Virus record (IMG/VR): IMGVR_UViG_2690316115_000007
Location: 1-4,929 of that record
Reading direction: 5' to 3' (one strand)
Source: a virus
Lineage: Duplodnaviria > Heunggongvirae > Uroviricota > Caudoviricetes
DNA: 4,929 bases
Under the pieces are notes generated by a model. The model was not told where the DNA came from, ran no database searches, and was given only the letters and a program-made list of their open reading frames with translations. Positions 1,030 through 4,929 of this stretch are shown piece by piece. Every line of letters starts with the position of its first letter. Within the stretch, counting starts at the first letter, position 1. Made by a program: the position numbers and the translations under genes.

Positions 1030-1060
1030 TTCTGTCTCCCGTTAAATTACGTTAAGCAGA

Positions 1061-1090
1061 AATGTAGGATATCCAACATGCCAATGTCAA
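1061..1090 (-). promoter_or_regulatory. PR-like promoter driving cro: -35 TTGACA (revcomp of 1085-1090), 18-nt spacer, -10 TACATT (revcomp of 1061-1066)
   Basis: Consensus -35 hexamer and a 4/6 -10 hexamer on the minus strand, about 30 nt upstream of the cro SD. The -10 and spacer lie inside operator O1. The same -35/spacer/-10 arrangement recurs at 1865-1894 on the plus strand. Confidence 0.55.
1062..1079. promoter_or_regulatory. Operator O1: 18-bp near-palindrome ATGTAGGATATCCAACAT
   Basis: Imperfect inverted repeat (half-sites ATGTAGGAT / ATGTTGGAT, 8 of 9 symmetric). Overlaps the -10 of the PR-like promoter. Its exact reverse complement occurs at 1876-1893. Confidence 0.65.
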
Positions 1091-1126
1091 GAATCCTACA
1101 TGGGCATGTGGTAGGATTGCCTACAT
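1084..1126. promoter_or_regulatory. Operator-like sites O2 (about 1084-1101, good half-site ATCCTACAT at 1093-1101) and O3 (1109-1126, tgGTAGGAT/TGCCTACAT)
   Basis: Reiterated ATGTAGGAT/ATCCTACAT-type half-sites. Centre-to-centre spacings from O1 are about 22 and 47 bp, resembling the tripartite lambda OR layout. O3 overlaps the repressor start codon (CCTACATG). A weak rightward -10-like TAGGAT at 1112-1117 could serve as a PRM-like promoter. Confidence 0.45.
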
Positions 1127-1798: not shown

Positions 1799-1824
1799 AA
1801 AACCGGGGTATCCCCGGTTTTTTT
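1799..1824. terminator. Bidirectional rho-independent terminator downstream of the repressor gene
   Basis: Perfect hairpin CCGGGG-tat-CCCCGG (1803-1817), extended by AAAA (1799-1802) pairing with TTTT (1818-1821) and followed by a run of 7 T (1818-1824). The upstream A-run gives terminator character on the minus strand as well. Confidence 0.7.
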
Positions 1825-1840: not shown

Positions 1841-1894
1841 ATGTAGGATAACCAACATAAACTCTTGACACTCACATGTTGGATATCCTACATT
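1841..1894 (+). promoter_or_regulatory. PL-like early promoter with two operators: OL-a ATGTAGGATAACCAACAT (1841-1858), -35 TTGACA (1865-1870), OL-b ATGTTGGATATCCTACAT (1876-1893), -10 TACATT (1889-1894)
   Basis: Consensus -35, 18-nt spacer and a 4/6 -10, identical in architecture to the cro promoter. OL-b is the exact reverse complement of O1 and overlaps the spacer and -10. OL-a is a 17/18 match to O1. Confidence 0.6.
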
Positions 1895-2088
1895 TGTTTT
1901 TAGAGTTGTGGTGAATGCGCAGGCTGATGCGCGAAAGACATTGCAGCTATTGCGGAAAAGAGCTGTTCGGCGGGGCAATTAAACGCCCGTGAGAGTCTGA
2001 AATAACCGCAAGCCGGAGATCAGCACCGGTCACCACAACAGCCACTGCTTTGGCGGTACCAGTTTGTACACTTGCTTCCGGCTGGTAC

Positions 2089-2100
2089 CGCTCTTTTTAC
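2089..2100 (+). promoter_or_regulatory. boxA-like motif CGCTCTTTTTAC in the early leader
   Basis: Resembles the lambda nut boxA core CGCTCTTA and the rrn boxA TGCTCTTTAACAA. Sits about 190 nt downstream of the PL-like promoter and immediately 5' of a long hairpin. Confidence 0.3.
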
Positions 2101-2187
2101 AAAACAGAGAAGAGCATCACCGGACGACGGGCTCATAACCCAATCCATCCGGGCGGCTGCCACCGCAGGTGTTCTTCTCTGTTTTGT
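2099..2187 (+). other. Large leader RNA hairpin: 13-bp perfect inverted repeat AAAACAGAGAAGA (2101-2113) / TCTTCTCTGTTTT (2173-2185), extendable to about 20 bp with G-U pairs, enclosing about 50-60 nt of GC-rich sequence
   Basis: Inverted repeat read directly from the sequence. The 3' arm ends in UUUU followed by GUGG. Candidate nut/put-like antitermination element or a tL-type terminator/attenuator between the promoter and the first gene. Confidence 0.4.
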
Positions 2188-2235
2188 GGAGAAACCAACC
2201 GACCTTACAGGGTCGATATGATGAGGAGCAGCAAA

Positions 2236-2598
2236 ATGGCTAGCGAACGCAGTACTGATGTGCAGGCATTTATCGGGGAGCTGGACGGCGGCGTATTTGA
2301 AACCAAAATCGGCGCTGTTCTCAGTGAAGTCGCTTCCGGTGTGATGAACACGAAAACCAAAGGTAAGGTCTCGCTCAACCTGGAAATCGAACCGTTTGAT
2401 GAGAACCGTGTGAAAATCAAACACAAACTCTCATATGTTCGCCCGACTAACCGCGGGAAAATTTCTGAAGAAGACACCACCGAAACGCCGATGTATGTCA
2501 ATCGCGGTGGTCGCCTGACTATTCTGCAGGAAGACCAGGGACAATTACTGACTCTTGCCGGTGAACCTGACGGAAAACTCCGCGCAGCAGGTCATTAA
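2236..2598 (+). CDS. yfdP: YfdP-like prophage protein of unknown function, 120 aa
   Basis: ATG at 2236 preceded by the strong SD GAGGAG (2223-2228) at 7-nt spacing. The upstream in-frame extension to 2050 has no SD and overlaps the structured leader. The 120-aa length and its position immediately before the 274-aa and 178-aa genes match my recollection of yfdP-yfdQ-yfdR in K-12 CPS-53. In-frame ATGs at 2218 and 2221 are alternative starts. Confidence 0.7.
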   Translation: MASERSTDVQAFIGELDGGVFETKIGAVLSEVASGVMNTKTKGKVSLNLEIEPFDENRVKIKHKLSYVRPTNRGKISEEDTTETPMYVNRGGRLTILQEDQGQLLTLAGEPDGKLRAAGH

Positions 2599-2663
2599 TA
2601 TCGTTCTTAATTAACTGATTATTTATCTCATCACTGAATATCTTTATATAGTGAGGACTTATT

Positions 2664-3488
2664 ATGTCTCAGAACTTAGACGCAACCGCAATTAATCAAA
2701 TCCATGCTCTTATTTCTGCTCAGGGTGTTAATGAAATTATCAGTAATATTGGTGCCGATGCTGTGGCATTGCCTGAGAATTTCCGCATTCATGATCTGGA
2801 AAAATTTAATTTAAATCGCTTCCGTTTCCGTGGCGCGCTTTCCACTGCCAGCATCGATGATTTTACCCGTTATTCTAAAGATCTTGCAGATGAAGGCACC
2901 CGCTGCTTTATCGATGCTGATAATATGCGTGCCGTCAGTGTGCTTAACCTGGGTACTATTGATGAACCAGGTCACGCAGATAACACCGCCACTCTCAAAC
3001 TGAAAAAGACAGCACCGTTCTCTGCTCTGTTGTCTGTTAACGGCGAGCGTAACTCCCAGAAGTCACTGGCAGAATGGATTGAAGACTGGGCCGACTACCT
3101 TGTGGGCTTTGATGCTAATGGTGACGCCATTCAGGCAACCAAAGCGGCTGCGGCGATCCGTAAAATCACAATTGAAGCGAACCAGACCGCTGATTTTGAA
3201 GATAATGACTTCAGCGGCAAACGCTCCCTGATGGAGTCTGTCGAAGCGAAGACCAAAGACATTATGCCAGTGGCATTTGAATTTAAATGCGTTCCGTTTG
3301 AAGGTCTGAAAGAACGTCCATTTAAATTACGCCTCAGCATTATCACTGGCGATCGTCCTGTACTGGTTCTGCGCATTATTCAGCTGGAAGCAGTGCAGGA
3401 AGAAATGGCTAACGAATTTCGTGATCTGCTTGTTGAGAAATTCAAAGACAGCAAAGTAGAAACCTTTATTGGTACTTTCACCGCCTGA
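2664..3488 (+). CDS. yfdQ: YfdQ-like protein (DUF2303-type as recalled), 274 aa, function unknown
   Basis: ATG at 2664 with SD GAGGA (2653-2657) at 6-nt spacing. Clean 274-aa ORF. Length and synteny match my recollection of K-12 YfdQ. No catalytic motif recognised by eye. Confidence 0.75.
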
Positions 3489-3500
3489 TTTCATTACTGC

Positions 3501-3522
3501 AAATGCCCCTGCGGGGGCATTT
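3501..3522. other. Stem-loop AAATGCCCC-tgcg-GGGGCATTT immediately after yfdQ; possible weak intrinsic terminator or attenuator
   Basis: 9-bp perfect stem with a 4-nt loop, 13 nt after the yfdQ stop codon. Only a short U-tract follows (UUUAU), so complete termination is doubtful. Confidence 0.4.
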
Positions 3523-3616
3523 ATGGAAACGTAATTAACTCAATAATCGCCGGATGGTGCGGGATTCCTTTTACCCGAATTCAGCGCGGTGCAGCGCATA
3601 TAAAGTGGAGAACGAA

Positions 3617-4153
3617 ATGTCATTTATTAAAACTTTTTCCGGGAAGCATTTTTATTATGACAAGATAAATAAAGACGACATCGTGATTAACGATATCGCG
3701 GTTTCCCTTTCAAATATCTGTCGCTTTGCAGGACATCTTTCACACTTCTACAGTGTCGCCCAGCATGCGGTGCTTTGCCGCCAGCTGGTGCCGCAGGAAT
3801 TTGCTTTTGAAGCGTTAATGCATGATGCAACAGAAGCGTATTGCCAGGACATCCCCGCACCACTGAAACGACTTCTTCCTGACTATAAACGGATGGAGGA
3901 AAAAATAGACGCCGTAATCCGTGAGAAATACGGGTTACCTCCTGTTATGAGCACGCCAGTGAAATATGCCGATCTCATCATGCTGGCAACCGAACGCCGC
4001 GATCTCGGACTTGATGATGGCTCTTTCTGGCCTGTATTGGAAGGTATCCCGGCAACAGAGATGTTCAAAGTGATTCCACTGGCACCGGGCCATGCCTACG
4101 GGATGTTTATGGAACGCTTCAACGAGTTATCGGAATTACGCAAATGTGCATAA
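3617..4153 (+). CDS. yfdR: HD-domain phosphohydrolase, YfdR-like (5'-deoxynucleotidase family), 178 aa
   Basis: ATG at 3617 with SD GGAG (3607-3610) at 6-nt spacing. The HD signature is in LMHDATEAY (His-Asp at nt 3821-3826). The 178-aa length and position match my recollection of K-12 YfdR. The longer 199-aa ORF from 3554 lacks an SD. Confidence 0.8.
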   Translation: MSFIKTFSGKHFYYDKINKDDIVINDIAVSLSNICRFAGHLSHFYSVAQHAVLCRQLVPQEFAFEALMHDATEAYCQDIPAPLKRLLPDYKRMEEKIDAVIREKYGLPPVMSTPVKYADLIMLATERRDLGLDDGSFWPVLEGIPATEMFKVIPLAPGHAYGMFMERFNELSELRKCA

Positions 4154-4869
4154 CTCATGTAGTTAGTTTTTCTGGCGGGAGAACATCTGCATATCTTGTT
4201 CACCTGATGGAAGAACAAAGAAAGGCTGGCAATAACGTCTGCTACACCTTTATGGATACCGGTTGCGAACATCCGCTGACATACCGCTTTATTCGGGAGG
4301 TTGTGAAGTTCTGGGGCATACCGCTAACTGTGTTGCAGGTCGATATAAATCCAGAGCTTGGGCAGCCAAATGGTTATACGGAATGGGAACCAAAGGATAT
4401 TCAGACGCGAATGCCGGTGCTTAAACCGTTTATGGACATGGTTAAAAAGTACGGTACGCCATACATCGGCGGCGCATTCTGTACTGACAGGCTAAAACTC
4501 ACCCCTTTCACGAAATATTGCGATGACCATTTTGGGCGAGGGAATTACATCACATGGCTGGGTATTCGTGCAGACGAACCCCGCAGGCTGAAACCGAAAC
4601 CGGGCGTCCGGTATCTCGCCGAACTGTCAGATTTTGATAAGTCGGATGTTATCCGGTGGTGGCGTAAACAGCCGTTCGATTTACTTATCCCTGAGCACCT
4701 CGGGAACTATGTTTTCTGCATCAAAAAGTCAACGCAAAAGCTGGGGCTTGCATGTAAGGACGAACCTGGCCTGATGCGGGTTTTTAATGAACTGGTTACA
4801 GGCCAACACGTCAGGGACGGTCTGAGGTGTACTGACAATAGCGGACACTACCATTTGTTCTTTTTTTAA
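4144..4869 (+). CDS. PAPS-reductase-family PP-loop protein (phosphoadenosine phosphosulfate reductase-like), 241 aa
   Basis: PP-loop-like motif VVSFSGGRTS (nt 4165-4188). FMDTGCEHPLTYRFIREV closely parallels E. coli CysH ILTDTGYLFPETYRFIDEL. The start codon overlaps the yfdR stop (ATGTGCATAA, 4144-4153), indicating translational coupling. Confidence 0.8.
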   Translation: MCITHVVSFSGGRTSAYLVHLMEEQRKAGNNVCYTFMDTGCEHPLTYRFIREVVKFWGIPLTVLQVDINPELGQPNGYTEWEPKDIQTRMPVLKPFMDMVKKYGTPYIGGAFCTDRLKLTPFTKYCDDHFGRGNYITWLGIRADEPRRLKPKPGVRYLAELSDFDKSDVIRWWRKQPFDLLIPEHLGNYVFCIKKSTQKLGLACKDEPGLMRVFNELVTGQHVRDGLRCTDNSGHYHLFFF

Positions 4870-4929
4870 GCAGCTATCTGATGATATTTTTCCCTGAAGG
4901 CTGCCGGGGAGATATTCCCCAGACGAGAG

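Follow-up and report, generated by a model that had tools for sequence, protein, structure and literature searches.

The yfdP-yfdQ-yfdR early genes of a lambdoid prophage, their structured leader, and a truncated neighboring gene

Introduction

If four genes are the first to follow a repressor-controlled phage promoter, do they constitute one functional unit, and what might such a unit do? The question is raised by a 4,929-bp stretch of viral DNA (the window), in which four open reading frames (ORFs) lie on the plus strand at 2236–2598, 2664–3488, 3617–4153 and 4144–4869, each with either a Shine-Dalgarno sequence or a start codon that overlaps the preceding gene. A first-pass annotation of the sequence had placed the ORFs correctly, as the ORF list and translations confirm, and had viewed them as an undescribed cassette in which an HD enzyme and a PP-loop enzyme join two further proteins.

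The first three genes also occur, with gene order and spacing unchanged, in the yfdP-yfdQ-yfdR-yfdS-yfdT cluster of the cryptic prophage CPS-53 (KpLE1) of E. coli K-12. One experimental paper covers the K-12 copy of the trio (Noguchi and Katayama 2016, PMC4776307) and bears out what the annotation said of YfdR and DnaA. In that study, multicopy yfdQ and yfdR together with either yfdS or yfdT inhibited initiation at oriC, and the inhibition by multicopy yfdQRT or yfdQRS was seen in the wild type and in hda, dnaAcos and seqA strains. In purified form, YfdR bound domain I of DnaA in a Phe46-dependent manner and competed with DiaA and DnaB; YfdQ, YfdS and YfdT did not bind strongly to either YfdR or DnaA. 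YfdR was described as related to the 5'-deoxynucleotidase YfbR, with a much lower affinity for substrate, and a lambda-P-like takeover of host replication was proposed for the ancestral phage. A yfdQRST deletion was without effect, and the authors concede that the overexpression phenotype may be an artefact. With the takeover idea in print since 2016, and the yfdR/yfdQ/yfdP cluster called common in lambdoid early-left operons in 2025 (PMC12315714), the module can no longer be termed undescribed.

Results

The immunity region and the ends of the contig

The locus represents the left arm of the immunity region of a lambdoid prophage: genes for a cI-type S24 repressor and for Cro diverge, and common operators lie on both promoters. 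The minus strand carries a ymfL/CII-like regulator gene of 194 aa (220–804; NCBIfam NF041471 YmfL, E 8e-54; phrog_101, CII-like activator) and a cro-like gene of 65 aa (832–1029; PF14549 P22_Cro, E 8e-22), the latter served by a divergent PR-like promoter (1053–1092, minus strand; TTGACA at 1090–1085, TACATT at 1066–1061) that an 18-bp operator palindrome overlaps at 1062–1079. On the plus strand, the CI-type repressor of 217 aa (1125–1778; phrog_4) combines a helix-turn-helix domain (PF01381) with an S24 autopeptidase domain (PF00717), and its translation contains the Ala-Gly site VQAGSW, the serine of GDSM and a lysine further downstream. An intrinsic terminator is visible in the sequence 3' of the repressor gene (1799–1824, plus strand; CCGGGG-TAT-CCCCGG followed by T7). 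The PL-like, sigma-70-like promoter (1841–1894, plus strand; –35 TTGACA at 1865–1870, –10 TACATT at 1889–1894) lies 3' of this LexA/S24-type repressor gene and its terminator, and two copies of the PR-type 18-bp palindrome overlap it as operators (1841–1858 and 1876–1893).

That this context is intact, as the annotation had supposed in setting it against the K-12 element, cannot be claimed from a contig bounded by insertion sequences: the window is the whole of the short contig CYAY01000102.1 of GCA_001286405.1, with an IS copy at either end. Positions 1 to about 108 (minus strand) are the end of an IS629/IS1203-like element of the IS3 family, with a 94% match to transposase loci of the IS1203 family; its terminal inverted repeat (...GGGGCGGTTCA) is visible in the sequence. 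This element breaks the rightward early operon 112 bp past the ymfL stop, and homology to related prophages starts at position 102. At the other side, an IS600 end (about 4823 to 4929; 97% match to copies of IS600 from 2885 genomes) cuts the fourth ORF.

The trio and its relatives

The three products are 99.2% (YfdP), 99.3% (YfdQ) and 98.3% (YfdR) identical to those of CPS-53, which upholds the suggested link to K-12, and the family assignments made from the sequence were likewise correct. YfdP (120 aa) belongs to phrog_204, and PF27127 is recorded both for this exact protein and for all its homologues. YfdQ (274 aa; PF10065/DUF2303, E 1e-92) is a full-length family member, scoring 310.7 bits against a cutoff of 26.6 over residues 7–272. 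Its motifs include an invariant Arg-rich RFRFRG and PGHADN; clustering at 50% identity divides the family into about 1771 groups, and the best 150 of the 1771 representatives are all stand-alone proteins of 250–300 aa, with no domain fusions among them.

YfdR (178 aa) matches phrog_318 (E 3e-109), annotated as a deoxyribonucleoside 5' monophosphate phosphatase, and is of the HD-domain 5'-deoxynucleotidase/DnaA-binding type. The HD metal ligands H50, H69-D70 and D119 are present, and their conservation across 55 homologues of 48–98% identity is at least 95%. Although the HD motif is common to YfdR and the YfbR/Atu1052-type 5'-deoxynucleotidases, and PDB entry 2gz4 matches YfdR (E 1e-13), YfdR falls below the family cutoffs (PF12917, 24.4 bits vs 25.9; NF003009, 19.7 vs 122) and is not a member of the YfbR family, for which DnaA binding is not known. 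Phosphatase activity on dNMPs and DnaA binding through Phe46, both published for the 98.3%-identical K-12 YfdR only, may be expected of the protein encoded here by virtue of its sequence.

The locus is thus a further copy of the well-known lambdoid yfdP-yfdQ-yfdR early trio, and mostly an ordinary one. The same genes occupy the same early-left operon position in SfV (orf29-31), SfIV, mEp460, ST64B, LLS and many Stx phages, and the lambdoid yfdPQR clusters of many phages have 96–99% DNA identity to this copy, which differs from them only in the IS damage at both contig ends and in nothing else of substance. In CPS-53 the repressor and promoter are gone and so is the leader, of which only the last 19 nt match, and yfdS (DUF551) and yfdT follow yfdR, whereas here the immunity region is kept and a truncated gene stands in their place.

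A broken fourth gene in a variable slot

The fourth ORF, which had been taken for a complete gene, is not one. Its 241 codons as read include the 5' 226 codons or so (4144–4822, by homology) of a PAPS-reductase-family gene (PP-loop, SspD/DndC-like), with PAPS_reduct (PF01507; 35.4 bits, cutoff 22.5) at the N-terminus; homology to 292-aa relatives ends at 4822, and IS600 supplies the final 15 codons and the stop. The PP-loop motif SGGxxS is present as SFSGGRTS (residues 8–15) and is invariant in the alignment. Of the conserved cysteines (C113, C126, C189, C192, C272 and C276), C272 and C276 are missing here, and C189 of the CxxC is replaced by tyrosine (C189Y). Because of the IS600 truncation and the loss of a conserved cysteine, the gene is dead in this copy.

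Across its N-terminal half only, the ORF matches PADLOC SspD (E 3e-15) and, more weakly, DndC and BrxP. The family resembles these phosphorothioation proteins in its N-terminal PP-loop domain and conserved cysteines; unlike them, it is borne by phages as a solo gene, in some cases fused to a Dam methylase. The Ssp and Dnd partners (SspABC, DndABDE) are absent, and full-length relatives adjoin yfdR, small hypothetical genes and ead/Ea22. The fourth ORF is a separate variable-slot gene that probably encodes a PP-loop enzyme of the DNA-modification type.

Two samples, 80 YfdQ loci from different species and separately 80 E. coli-type viral contigs, bear on whether the four genes travel together, as the annotation had envisaged. 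In the cross-species sample, YfdP lies directly 5' of YfdQ in all 79 testable loci; YfdR is downstream of the pair in 56 of 77 and directly adjacent in 51, leaving 21 of 77 with YfdP-YfdQ and no YfdR. The PAPS-reductase-like gene accompanies YfdQ in none of the 80 cross-species loci, and follows yfdR in only 7 of the 80 E. coli-type contigs, where the slot is mostly filled by YfdS (about 54) or Eae (11). A nucleotide-processing cassette of four genes, with an HD phosphohydrolase and a PP-loop enzyme working on the nucleotide pool or on DNA, could draw on the nucleotide-handling nature of both enzymes, on the overlap of the fourth start codon with the yfdR stop, and on the occasional fusion of homologues to Dam-type methyltransferases, which points to a DNA substrate. 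The overlapping junction at the yfdR 3' end, however, usually leads into yfdS or eae in the E. coli-type contigs, most phage matches stop exactly at 4151, and the copy here is truncated and altered in an otherwise conserved CxxC. The co-occurrence counts largely refute this four-gene model, which we regard as extremely improbable.

The real mobile unit is the block 1902–4151, comprising the leader and yfdPQR, as judged by mosaic homology breakpoints at 1900–1902 and 4151: in prophages of other immunity types, homology starts at 1900–1902, directly past the PL-like –10. The YfdP-YfdQ pair itself reaches Xanthomonas, Vibrio and Pseudomonas phages, among them Xanthomonas phage MET23-P3 (hhalign probability 99.2), and the Xanthomonas phages are without YfdR.

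A conserved, structured leader

The four ORFs are the first to follow the PL-like promoter, as the annotation stated. Between promoter and yfdP lies a conserved, unannotated and structured leader of about 335 nt that contains a terminator-like hairpin, so that being transcribed first is not the same as being expressed unconditionally.

At its 5' end the leftward transcript carries a structured element that we call Module A (1905–2039, plus strand). Folds and comparison predict an invariant helix of 9 bp (GUUGUGGUG / CACCACAAC) that closes it around a 5' hairpin and a 3' hairpin, with a variable stretch between the two hairpins. Module A is present in 105 of about 170 loci, as 18 divergent sequence types with one common architecture; MAFFT and RNAalifold recovered the closing helix alone, the interiors being too divergent, and per-sequence folds were used instead. 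Neither Module A nor the leader had a relevant match in Rfam (E up to 1), and ARAGORN found no tRNA in them. An integron attC reading of the ends of Module A was rejected since the core words are in reversed order.

A cloverleaf-like element of the Module A type (105–140 nt) also adjoins tRNA genes in a P1-like phage.

Next in the leader is the terminator-like hairpin (GGCGGUACCAG...CUGGUACCGCU) with a U5 run on its 3' side (2052–2098, plus strand, from sequence and fold). A strict detector finds such a hairpin in 36 of 77 loci, and in other genera an equivalent hairpin and T-run have stems of different sequence. A long hairpin with 25-nt arms follows (2099–2187, plus strand); double changes occur in 14 of its 26 pairs, 95% of cells are paired, and none of 500 shuffles reached the observed covariation score. 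Readings of CGCUCUUUUUACAA as boxA and of GGCGGTACCAG as an RfaH ops site were both discarded on the same ground: the GCUC part lies in a covarying stem and is unconserved, and only the U-run is conserved. At 2184–2199 (plus strand) there is a 16-nt word, TTGTGGAGAAACCAAC, with a twin on the minus strand at 241–226, at the end of ymfL (2 matches vs 0.01 expected). One copy per strand occurs in 74 loci, and within a phage the left and right variants co-occur.

In its placement the leader recalls known antitermination systems. Like HK022 putL, Module A, as a candidate element, lies just 3' of a PL-like promoter and 5' of a terminator, and the 16-nt word, like lambda nutL/nutR and HK022 putL/putR, occurs once in each early operon. 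Unlike lambda, this locus has no N-like gene. No resemblance to an HK022 put-type antiterminator RNA was found: Module A and the leader have only 10-nt chance matches to putL/putR, and the architecture differs, Module A being a closed multi-hairpin of 105–140 nt and putL two stem-loops of about 70 nt.

Because yfdPQR lies downstream of an operator-covered promoter and a leader terminator, it should be silent in a lysogen. This argues against a defence or superinfection exclusion expressed by the lysogen in the manner of lambda rex or sieB, for which one could cite the frequent presence of such genes near immunity regions and an altered sensitivity of a K-12 yfdQ deletion to H2O2 and MMS, as cited in PMC4776307. 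PADLOC, moreover, gives no defence match for YfdP, YfdQ or YfdR, and we consider such a role very unlikely.

Discussion

The sequence identities, gene order, conservation and regulatory anatomy that we observe here, taken with the DnaA binding and the block to initiation published for the almost identical proteins of K-12, lead us to infer, with somewhat less than even confidence, that yfdPQR is an early host-takeover module aimed at chromosome replication via DnaA. During induction, inactivation of the S24-type repressor would allow the PL-like promoter to fire, and the leader, with Module A, the terminator-like hairpin and the long covarying hairpin, would be transcribed ahead of yfdP, yfdQ and yfdR. 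YfdR, presumably a weak dNMP 5'-nucleotidase, would then bind DnaA domain I at Phe46 in competition with DiaA and DnaB, and with YfdQ would block initiation at oriC, freeing replication resources for the phage; YfdP, the obligate gene-neighbor of YfdQ, probably acts with YfdQ. Overproduction of YfdQ in BW25113 caused plaque release of another phage (preprint 10.1101/413146), which fits a disturbed host DNA metabolism.

YfdR would in this respect resemble lambda P and SirA of B. subtilis, small DnaA-binding proteins that also block initiation, and SirA uses the residue equivalent to Phe46 (PMC4776307). There is, however, no relationship of sequence or fold: lambda P binds domain III of DnaA and is also a helicase loader, whereas YfdR is an HD enzyme that in vivo needs YfdQ plus YfdS or YfdT.

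Several observations fit poorly with takeover. The replication phenotype came from multicopy overexpression; it required yfdS or yfdT, both of which are missing at this locus, and did not require yfdP (PMC4776307), the most tightly linked partner of yfdQ. Since YfdR is missing beside YfdP-YfdQ in 21 of 77 loci, and likewise in Xanthomonas phages, the conserved core function cannot depend on the binding of YfdR to DnaA.

The solved structure of one YfdQ homologue and the presence of another in virions hint at a different, assembly-forming role. YfdQ is homologous to chain C of PDB entry 9o7m (E 9e-45), a chain label that implies at least two others; the entry holds 36 YfdQ-homologue chains, about 99% identical to the protein of MET23-P3, a CP2-like phage. 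In the PDB profile search 9o7m alone was YfdQ-like, and no other related fold emerged for the pair. In Burkholderia phage JC1, the DUF2303 protein gp10 was detected in virions by mass spectrometry. YfdQ might assemble into a large homo-oligomer or a nucleoprotein coat that is produced early, and that some phages carry in the virion; it would shield phage DNA or sequester a host immune factor, with YfdR an optional accessory. Conservation of the pair well beyond YfdR-carrying phages, an early-operon position typical of anti-defence genes, and the two conserved YfdQ motifs all agree with this putative anti-defence or DNA-protection role. Against it, 9o7m is not a virion map of its phage, for whose major capsid protein the PDB contains nothing nearly identical, and our literature search found no paper on 9o7m. 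The MET23-P3 YfdP homologue, 401-aa neighbor and capsid protein are all absent from the entry. We judge this role unlikely, if far from negligible.

The DnaA contact could instead serve the phage's own replication, in phages whose unusual replication modules would have no loader of the lambda-P or DnaC type: YfdR with YfdQ and YfdP would redirect DnaA or DnaB to the origin of the phage and not simply shut off the host. The surface of DnaA that YfdR occupies is the one that binds DnaB (PMC4776307); phage LLS, which has yfdR/Q/P homologues, carries an O-like replication gene only and no helicase loader (PMC12315714); and the right operon of relatives shows no obvious P/DnaC gene. But a Xanthomonas phage with the pair encodes primosomal and replication proteins of its own, and we hold this putative role to be quite improbable.

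The left operon of relatives is without an annotated Erf, RecT or Red-beta gene, as would suit an unrecognised homologous-recombination module in the slot of lambda exo-bet-gam. Phage ArgO145, however, combines the yfdPQR cluster with a complete Rec module (PMC12315714), MET23-P3 and JC1 carry YfdQ beside a separate recombinase/exonuclease or RecT/YqaJ pair, and there is no fold similarity to single-strand annealing proteins. This co-occurrence with separate recombinases led us to set aside a recombinase function, which is highly improbable.

Takeover via DnaA remains our preferred explanation. A joint reading, possible but doubtful, would make YfdP-YfdQ an obligate pair that acts independently of YfdR and DnaA and place the operon under undescribed RNA elements. 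The pair would, for example, coat or protect phage DNA or neutralise a host factor, given that the 9o7m homologue forms a large assembly, and Module A with the 16-nt word would mediate an N-independent antitermination or processing distinct from put.

The significance for which the locus was flagged is small: it is a common early-left cluster with a broken passenger as its fourth gene. YfdP-YfdQ nevertheless ranks among the most widespread early gene pairs of lambdoid phages that lack an assigned function, and with the structure of a YfdQ homologue already solved its mechanism may be within reach. The structured leader, in turn, suggests how lambdoid phages that lack N control early-left transcription, a question previously answered for HK022 only.

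Results

The window is a lambdoid immunity region. Open reading frames and profile matches show two genes on the minus strand, one ymfL/CII-like (220-804) and the other cro-like (832-1029). The plus strand has the gene for a CI-type repressor (1125-1778), whose product combines an HTH domain with an S24 autopeptidase domain; a clear intrinsic terminator, read from the sequence at 1799-1824, ends this gene. An 18-bp palindrome, ATGTAGGATATCCAACAT, is found at 1062-1079, where it overlaps the promoter on the cro side, and two further copies (1841-1858 and 1876-1893) lie around a PL-like, sigma-70-like promoter that points rightward (TTGACA at 1865-1870, an 18-nt spacer, and TACATT at 1889-1894). 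Given an S24 repressor and a palindrome common to both promoters, the description of this promoter in the first-pass annotation as repressor-controlled is well founded at the sequence level.

That annotation had also taken the context to be apparently intact, unlike the decayed element of K-12. A look-up via the truncated protein identified the window as the complete 4929-bp contig CYAY01000102.1 of GCA_001286405.1, a short-read product broken in insertion-sequence copies. An IS3-family end (IS629/IS1203-like) occupies positions 1 to about 108, with prophage homology from 102 onward, and an IS600 end fills the 107 bases at 4823-4929, directly after the stop of homology. The mixture of IS629/IS1203-like elements and IS600 is typical of Shigella or EHEC-type genomes. 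Because the contig ends in IS copies and both visible sides are damaged, the claim of intactness is unsupported.

The four open reading frames proposed as a cassette (2236-2598, 2664-3488, 3617-4153 and 4144-4869) are real. The first three products match phrog_204, DUF2303/YfdQ (PF10065, E 1e-92) and phrog_318 (annotated as a deoxyribonucleoside 5' monophosphate phosphatase), respectively, and differ so little from those of MG1655 CPS-53 (identical residues: YfdP 119/120, YfdQ 272/274, YfdR 175/178) that they are the same genes rather than merely similar ones. An alignment of 55 YfdR homologues (48-98% identity) shows conservation of at least 95% for the HD ligands H50, H69-D70 and D119, and therefore selection acts on the enzymatic activity of YfdR and not on DnaA binding alone. 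The YfdQ family is large, with 1771 clusters at 50% identity under an E limit of 1e-3 and 933 under one of 1e-30; among the best 150 of the 1771 representatives, every protein stands alone, with a length of about 270 aa, and the motifs RFRFRG and PGHADN are invariant in the family. For YfdP, a predicted model (pLDDT 68) has a long helix packed against a sheet of long strands, and it returned no informative fold match. The 120-aa form of YfdP is backed by a Shine-Dalgarno sequence, GAGGAG (2223-2228), and by cross-species alignment. Its frame stays open for 62 codons upstream of the ATG, through the structured leader (2050-2235), which accounts for database entries of "YfdP" with 148-199 aa. 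A G+C-rich hairpin, AATGCCCCTGCGGGGGCATTT, lies at 3500-3525 within the 128-nt gap between yfdQ and yfdR and could set unequal expression of yfdPQ and the downstream genes.

The fourth gene is a separate case. The N-terminal part of its product matches PAPS_reduct (PF01507), and related prophages have a 292-aa protein of the PAPS-reductase family with which the reading frame aligns no further than about residue 226. Because DNA homology to every related prophage ends at 4822 and the next 107 bases are the IS600 end, the gene is truncated. In an alignment of 16 members, C113, C126, C189, C192, C272 and C276 are conserved across the family, and the window copy is without three of these six cysteines; Cys189, within a CxxC motif, is changed to Tyr. 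The fourth reading frame is thus a broken passenger gene. Against PADLOC models, the N-terminal half of its product matches SspD (E 3e-15), with weaker matches to DndC and BrxP, and four homologues (P0471, P0475, P0506 and P0507), one of them from Vibrio phage 44E38.1, carry a C-terminal fusion to a Dam-type N6-adenine methyltransferase (PF05869). As judged from these matches, a solo PP-loop enzyme of this kind would fit a DNA-modification role separate from that of the trio.

Co-occurrence across phages shows that the four genes are not a conserved cassette. For most phage-genome matches to the window, similarity stops precisely where yfdR does, at 4151. In 80 IMG/VR loci of the E. coli type, yfdR is followed by yfdS in about 54 cases and by eae in 11, and only 7 have the PAPS-like gene there. 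In a cross-species sample of 80 loci, each from a different species and ranging from Enterobacterales to Marinobacter and Photobacterium, the PAPS-like gene was found in none. YfdP lies directly upstream of YfdQ in all 79 testable loci of this sample, YfdR is encoded downstream of YfdQ in 56 of 77 and is its immediate neighbor in 51, and a same-strand CI-like S24 repressor is encoded upstream in 44 of 80. Hence the conserved core is YfdP-YfdQ, with YfdR as a frequent third member and a variable fourth slot. That a single cassette of four genes acts on nucleotides is, with these counts, very improbable. The yfdR stop and the start codon of the next gene overlap at 4144-4153 (AAATGTGCATAA), and since homology to phages carrying yfdS or eae ends at 4151, this overlapping junction is the recombination point at which alternative fourth genes are attached. 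Together with a second mosaic breakpoint at 1900-1902, it shows that the leader and yfdPQR are exchanged as one block among phages that differ in immunity.

The leader between the promoter and yfdP, about 335 nt in length, folds at -138.7 kcal/mol (z -5.1 vs shuffles), and its nucleotides are more conserved across genera than are the proteins of the trio. At the very 5' end of this leftward early transcript is Module A (1905-2039), a structured element with a cloverleaf-like fold, in which an invariant closing helix of 9 bp (GUUGUGGUG / CACCACAAC) encloses a 5' hairpin whose loop has 6 nt, a middle part that varies, and a 3' hairpin lying directly against that helix. Of about 170 related loci, 105 have Module A; its sequences fall into 18 very different types and share one architecture. 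It also occurs at 98% identity apart from yfdP in unrelated phages, namely in Klebsiella phage IME207 (locus L171, 3501-3636) and in the P1-like phage RCS47 (locus L172, 3001-3136), where it directly follows tRNA-Asn and tRNA-Thr. In RCS47 its neighbors are units that have CACAACAGGTAAGAGC...GCTCTTACCGTTGTG as their boundaries, and one of them holds a T-arm-like GGTTCGAATCC; this suggests that Module A and its bounded neighbors are a family of portable small-RNA cassettes. Module A is no tRNA, and neither Rfam nor ARAGORN gave a match to the leader elements.

Two further hairpins follow on the plus strand. The first, terminator-like with a U-run (2052-2098), varies in its stem between genera and keeps the U-run. 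Its loop carries a conserved insert, ...CTTCAAC...ACCAGGAGG...GAAGATAATGTTCTG..., in 33 of 77 cross-species loci (e.g., L093, L101, L110, L117 and L142); the insert is absent from the window. The second, a long hairpin (2099-2187) just upstream of the yfdP ribosome-binding site, shows double changes in 14 of 26 pairs, with 95% of cells paired across 27 genera, and its covariation score was reached by 0 of 500 shuffles. A terminator-like and a long hairpin before the yfdP ribosome-binding site recall the RNase III hairpin of the lambda N leader. A 16-nt word, TTGTGGAGAAACYAAC, occurs exactly twice in the window (chance expectation 0.01): the plus-strand copy is at 2184-2199, and the minus-strand copy, at 241-226, falls where ymfL ends. 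Each divergent early operon thus has one copy, and the one-per-strand arrangement recurs in 74 loci. Variants of the word co-occur on the left and right within one phage, as do nutL/nutR or putL/putR. HK022 putL has no similarity to the leader elements. From these sequence patterns, the leader elements look like an undescribed early-operon control system of N-less lambdoid phages.

Discussion

What the first-pass annotation stated of the literature on YfdR, DnaA and replication is correct. In K-12, multicopy yfdQ and yfdR with either yfdS or yfdT suppress hda-185 and inhibit initiation at oriC, for which yfdP is dispensable; in structure, YfdR is homologous to the nucleotidase YfbR, its affinity for nucleotides being much lower; and an ancestral-phage role for the cluster was proposed in inhibiting host initiation, like lambda P, with SfV homologues cited (PMC4776307). 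The same authors cautioned that what they saw on overexpression might be an artefact and described the parts played by YfdQ, YfdS and YfdT as unclear (PMC4776307). The module can therefore not be called undescribed, since both the cluster and the replication-takeover hypothesis are already published (PMC4776307, PMC12315714).

The biochemistry is established for the near-identical K-12 proteins, and the identities and anatomy are established here. SOS-induced cleavage of the repressor would lead to transcription from the PL-like promoter of the structured leader and then of yfdP, yfdQ and yfdR, whereupon YfdR-DnaA, helped by YfdQ, would interfere early with host replication initiation. We tentatively infer such early interference, with YfdQ assisting, as the natural role; it is the best-supported function, if a possibility rather than a probability.

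The main weakness of this takeover reading is that about a quarter of loci, and distant phages too, have YfdP-YfdQ and no YfdR, and the core function of the pair is therefore something other than YfdR-DnaA. In Xanthomonas phage MET23-P3 (CP2-like; locus L004), the gene before YfdQ (6529-6903) encodes a diverged YfdP (hhalign probability 99.2, E 1e-19), mis-annotated as a (translation) elongation factor; an unrelated 401-aa protein, a recombinase, an exonuclease and an SSB follow the pair, and its neighborhood has no HD gene. A role in the phage's own replication is an unlikely candidate for that core function, and a recombination module hidden in these genes is less likely still. YfdQ and YfdP have been described as having no known function and as unlikely recombination proteins (PMC12315714).

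The sole solved YfdQ-like structure found by profile search, PDB 9o7m ("YfdQ Protein"), contains 36 chains of a homologue (e.g., chain C), about 99% identical to the MET23-P3 protein (L004 6959-7783), and at least two other chains; sequence comparison detected in it no MET23-P3 YfdP, downstream 401-aa protein or capsid protein, and a literature search found no publication on it. The DUF2303 protein of Burkholderia phage JC1, gp10, has been reported to be virion-associated, and overproduced YfdQ in K-12 to release resident-phage plaques (10.1101/413146). As another candidate core function, YfdP-YfdQ might act in a large assembly in anti-defence or DNA protection, which we regard as unlikely, though less so than a part in phage replication. 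PADLOC defence models gave no match for YfdP, YfdQ or YfdR. A defence expressed by the lysogen, for genes behind a repressor-controlled promoter, is very improbable.

The original observation is thus partly confirmed and its interpretation partly supported: the flagged object is a known and very common trio plus a broken passenger gene, and what stays of value is the YfdP-YfdQ pair, for which there is no explanation yet, together with the conserved leader elements.
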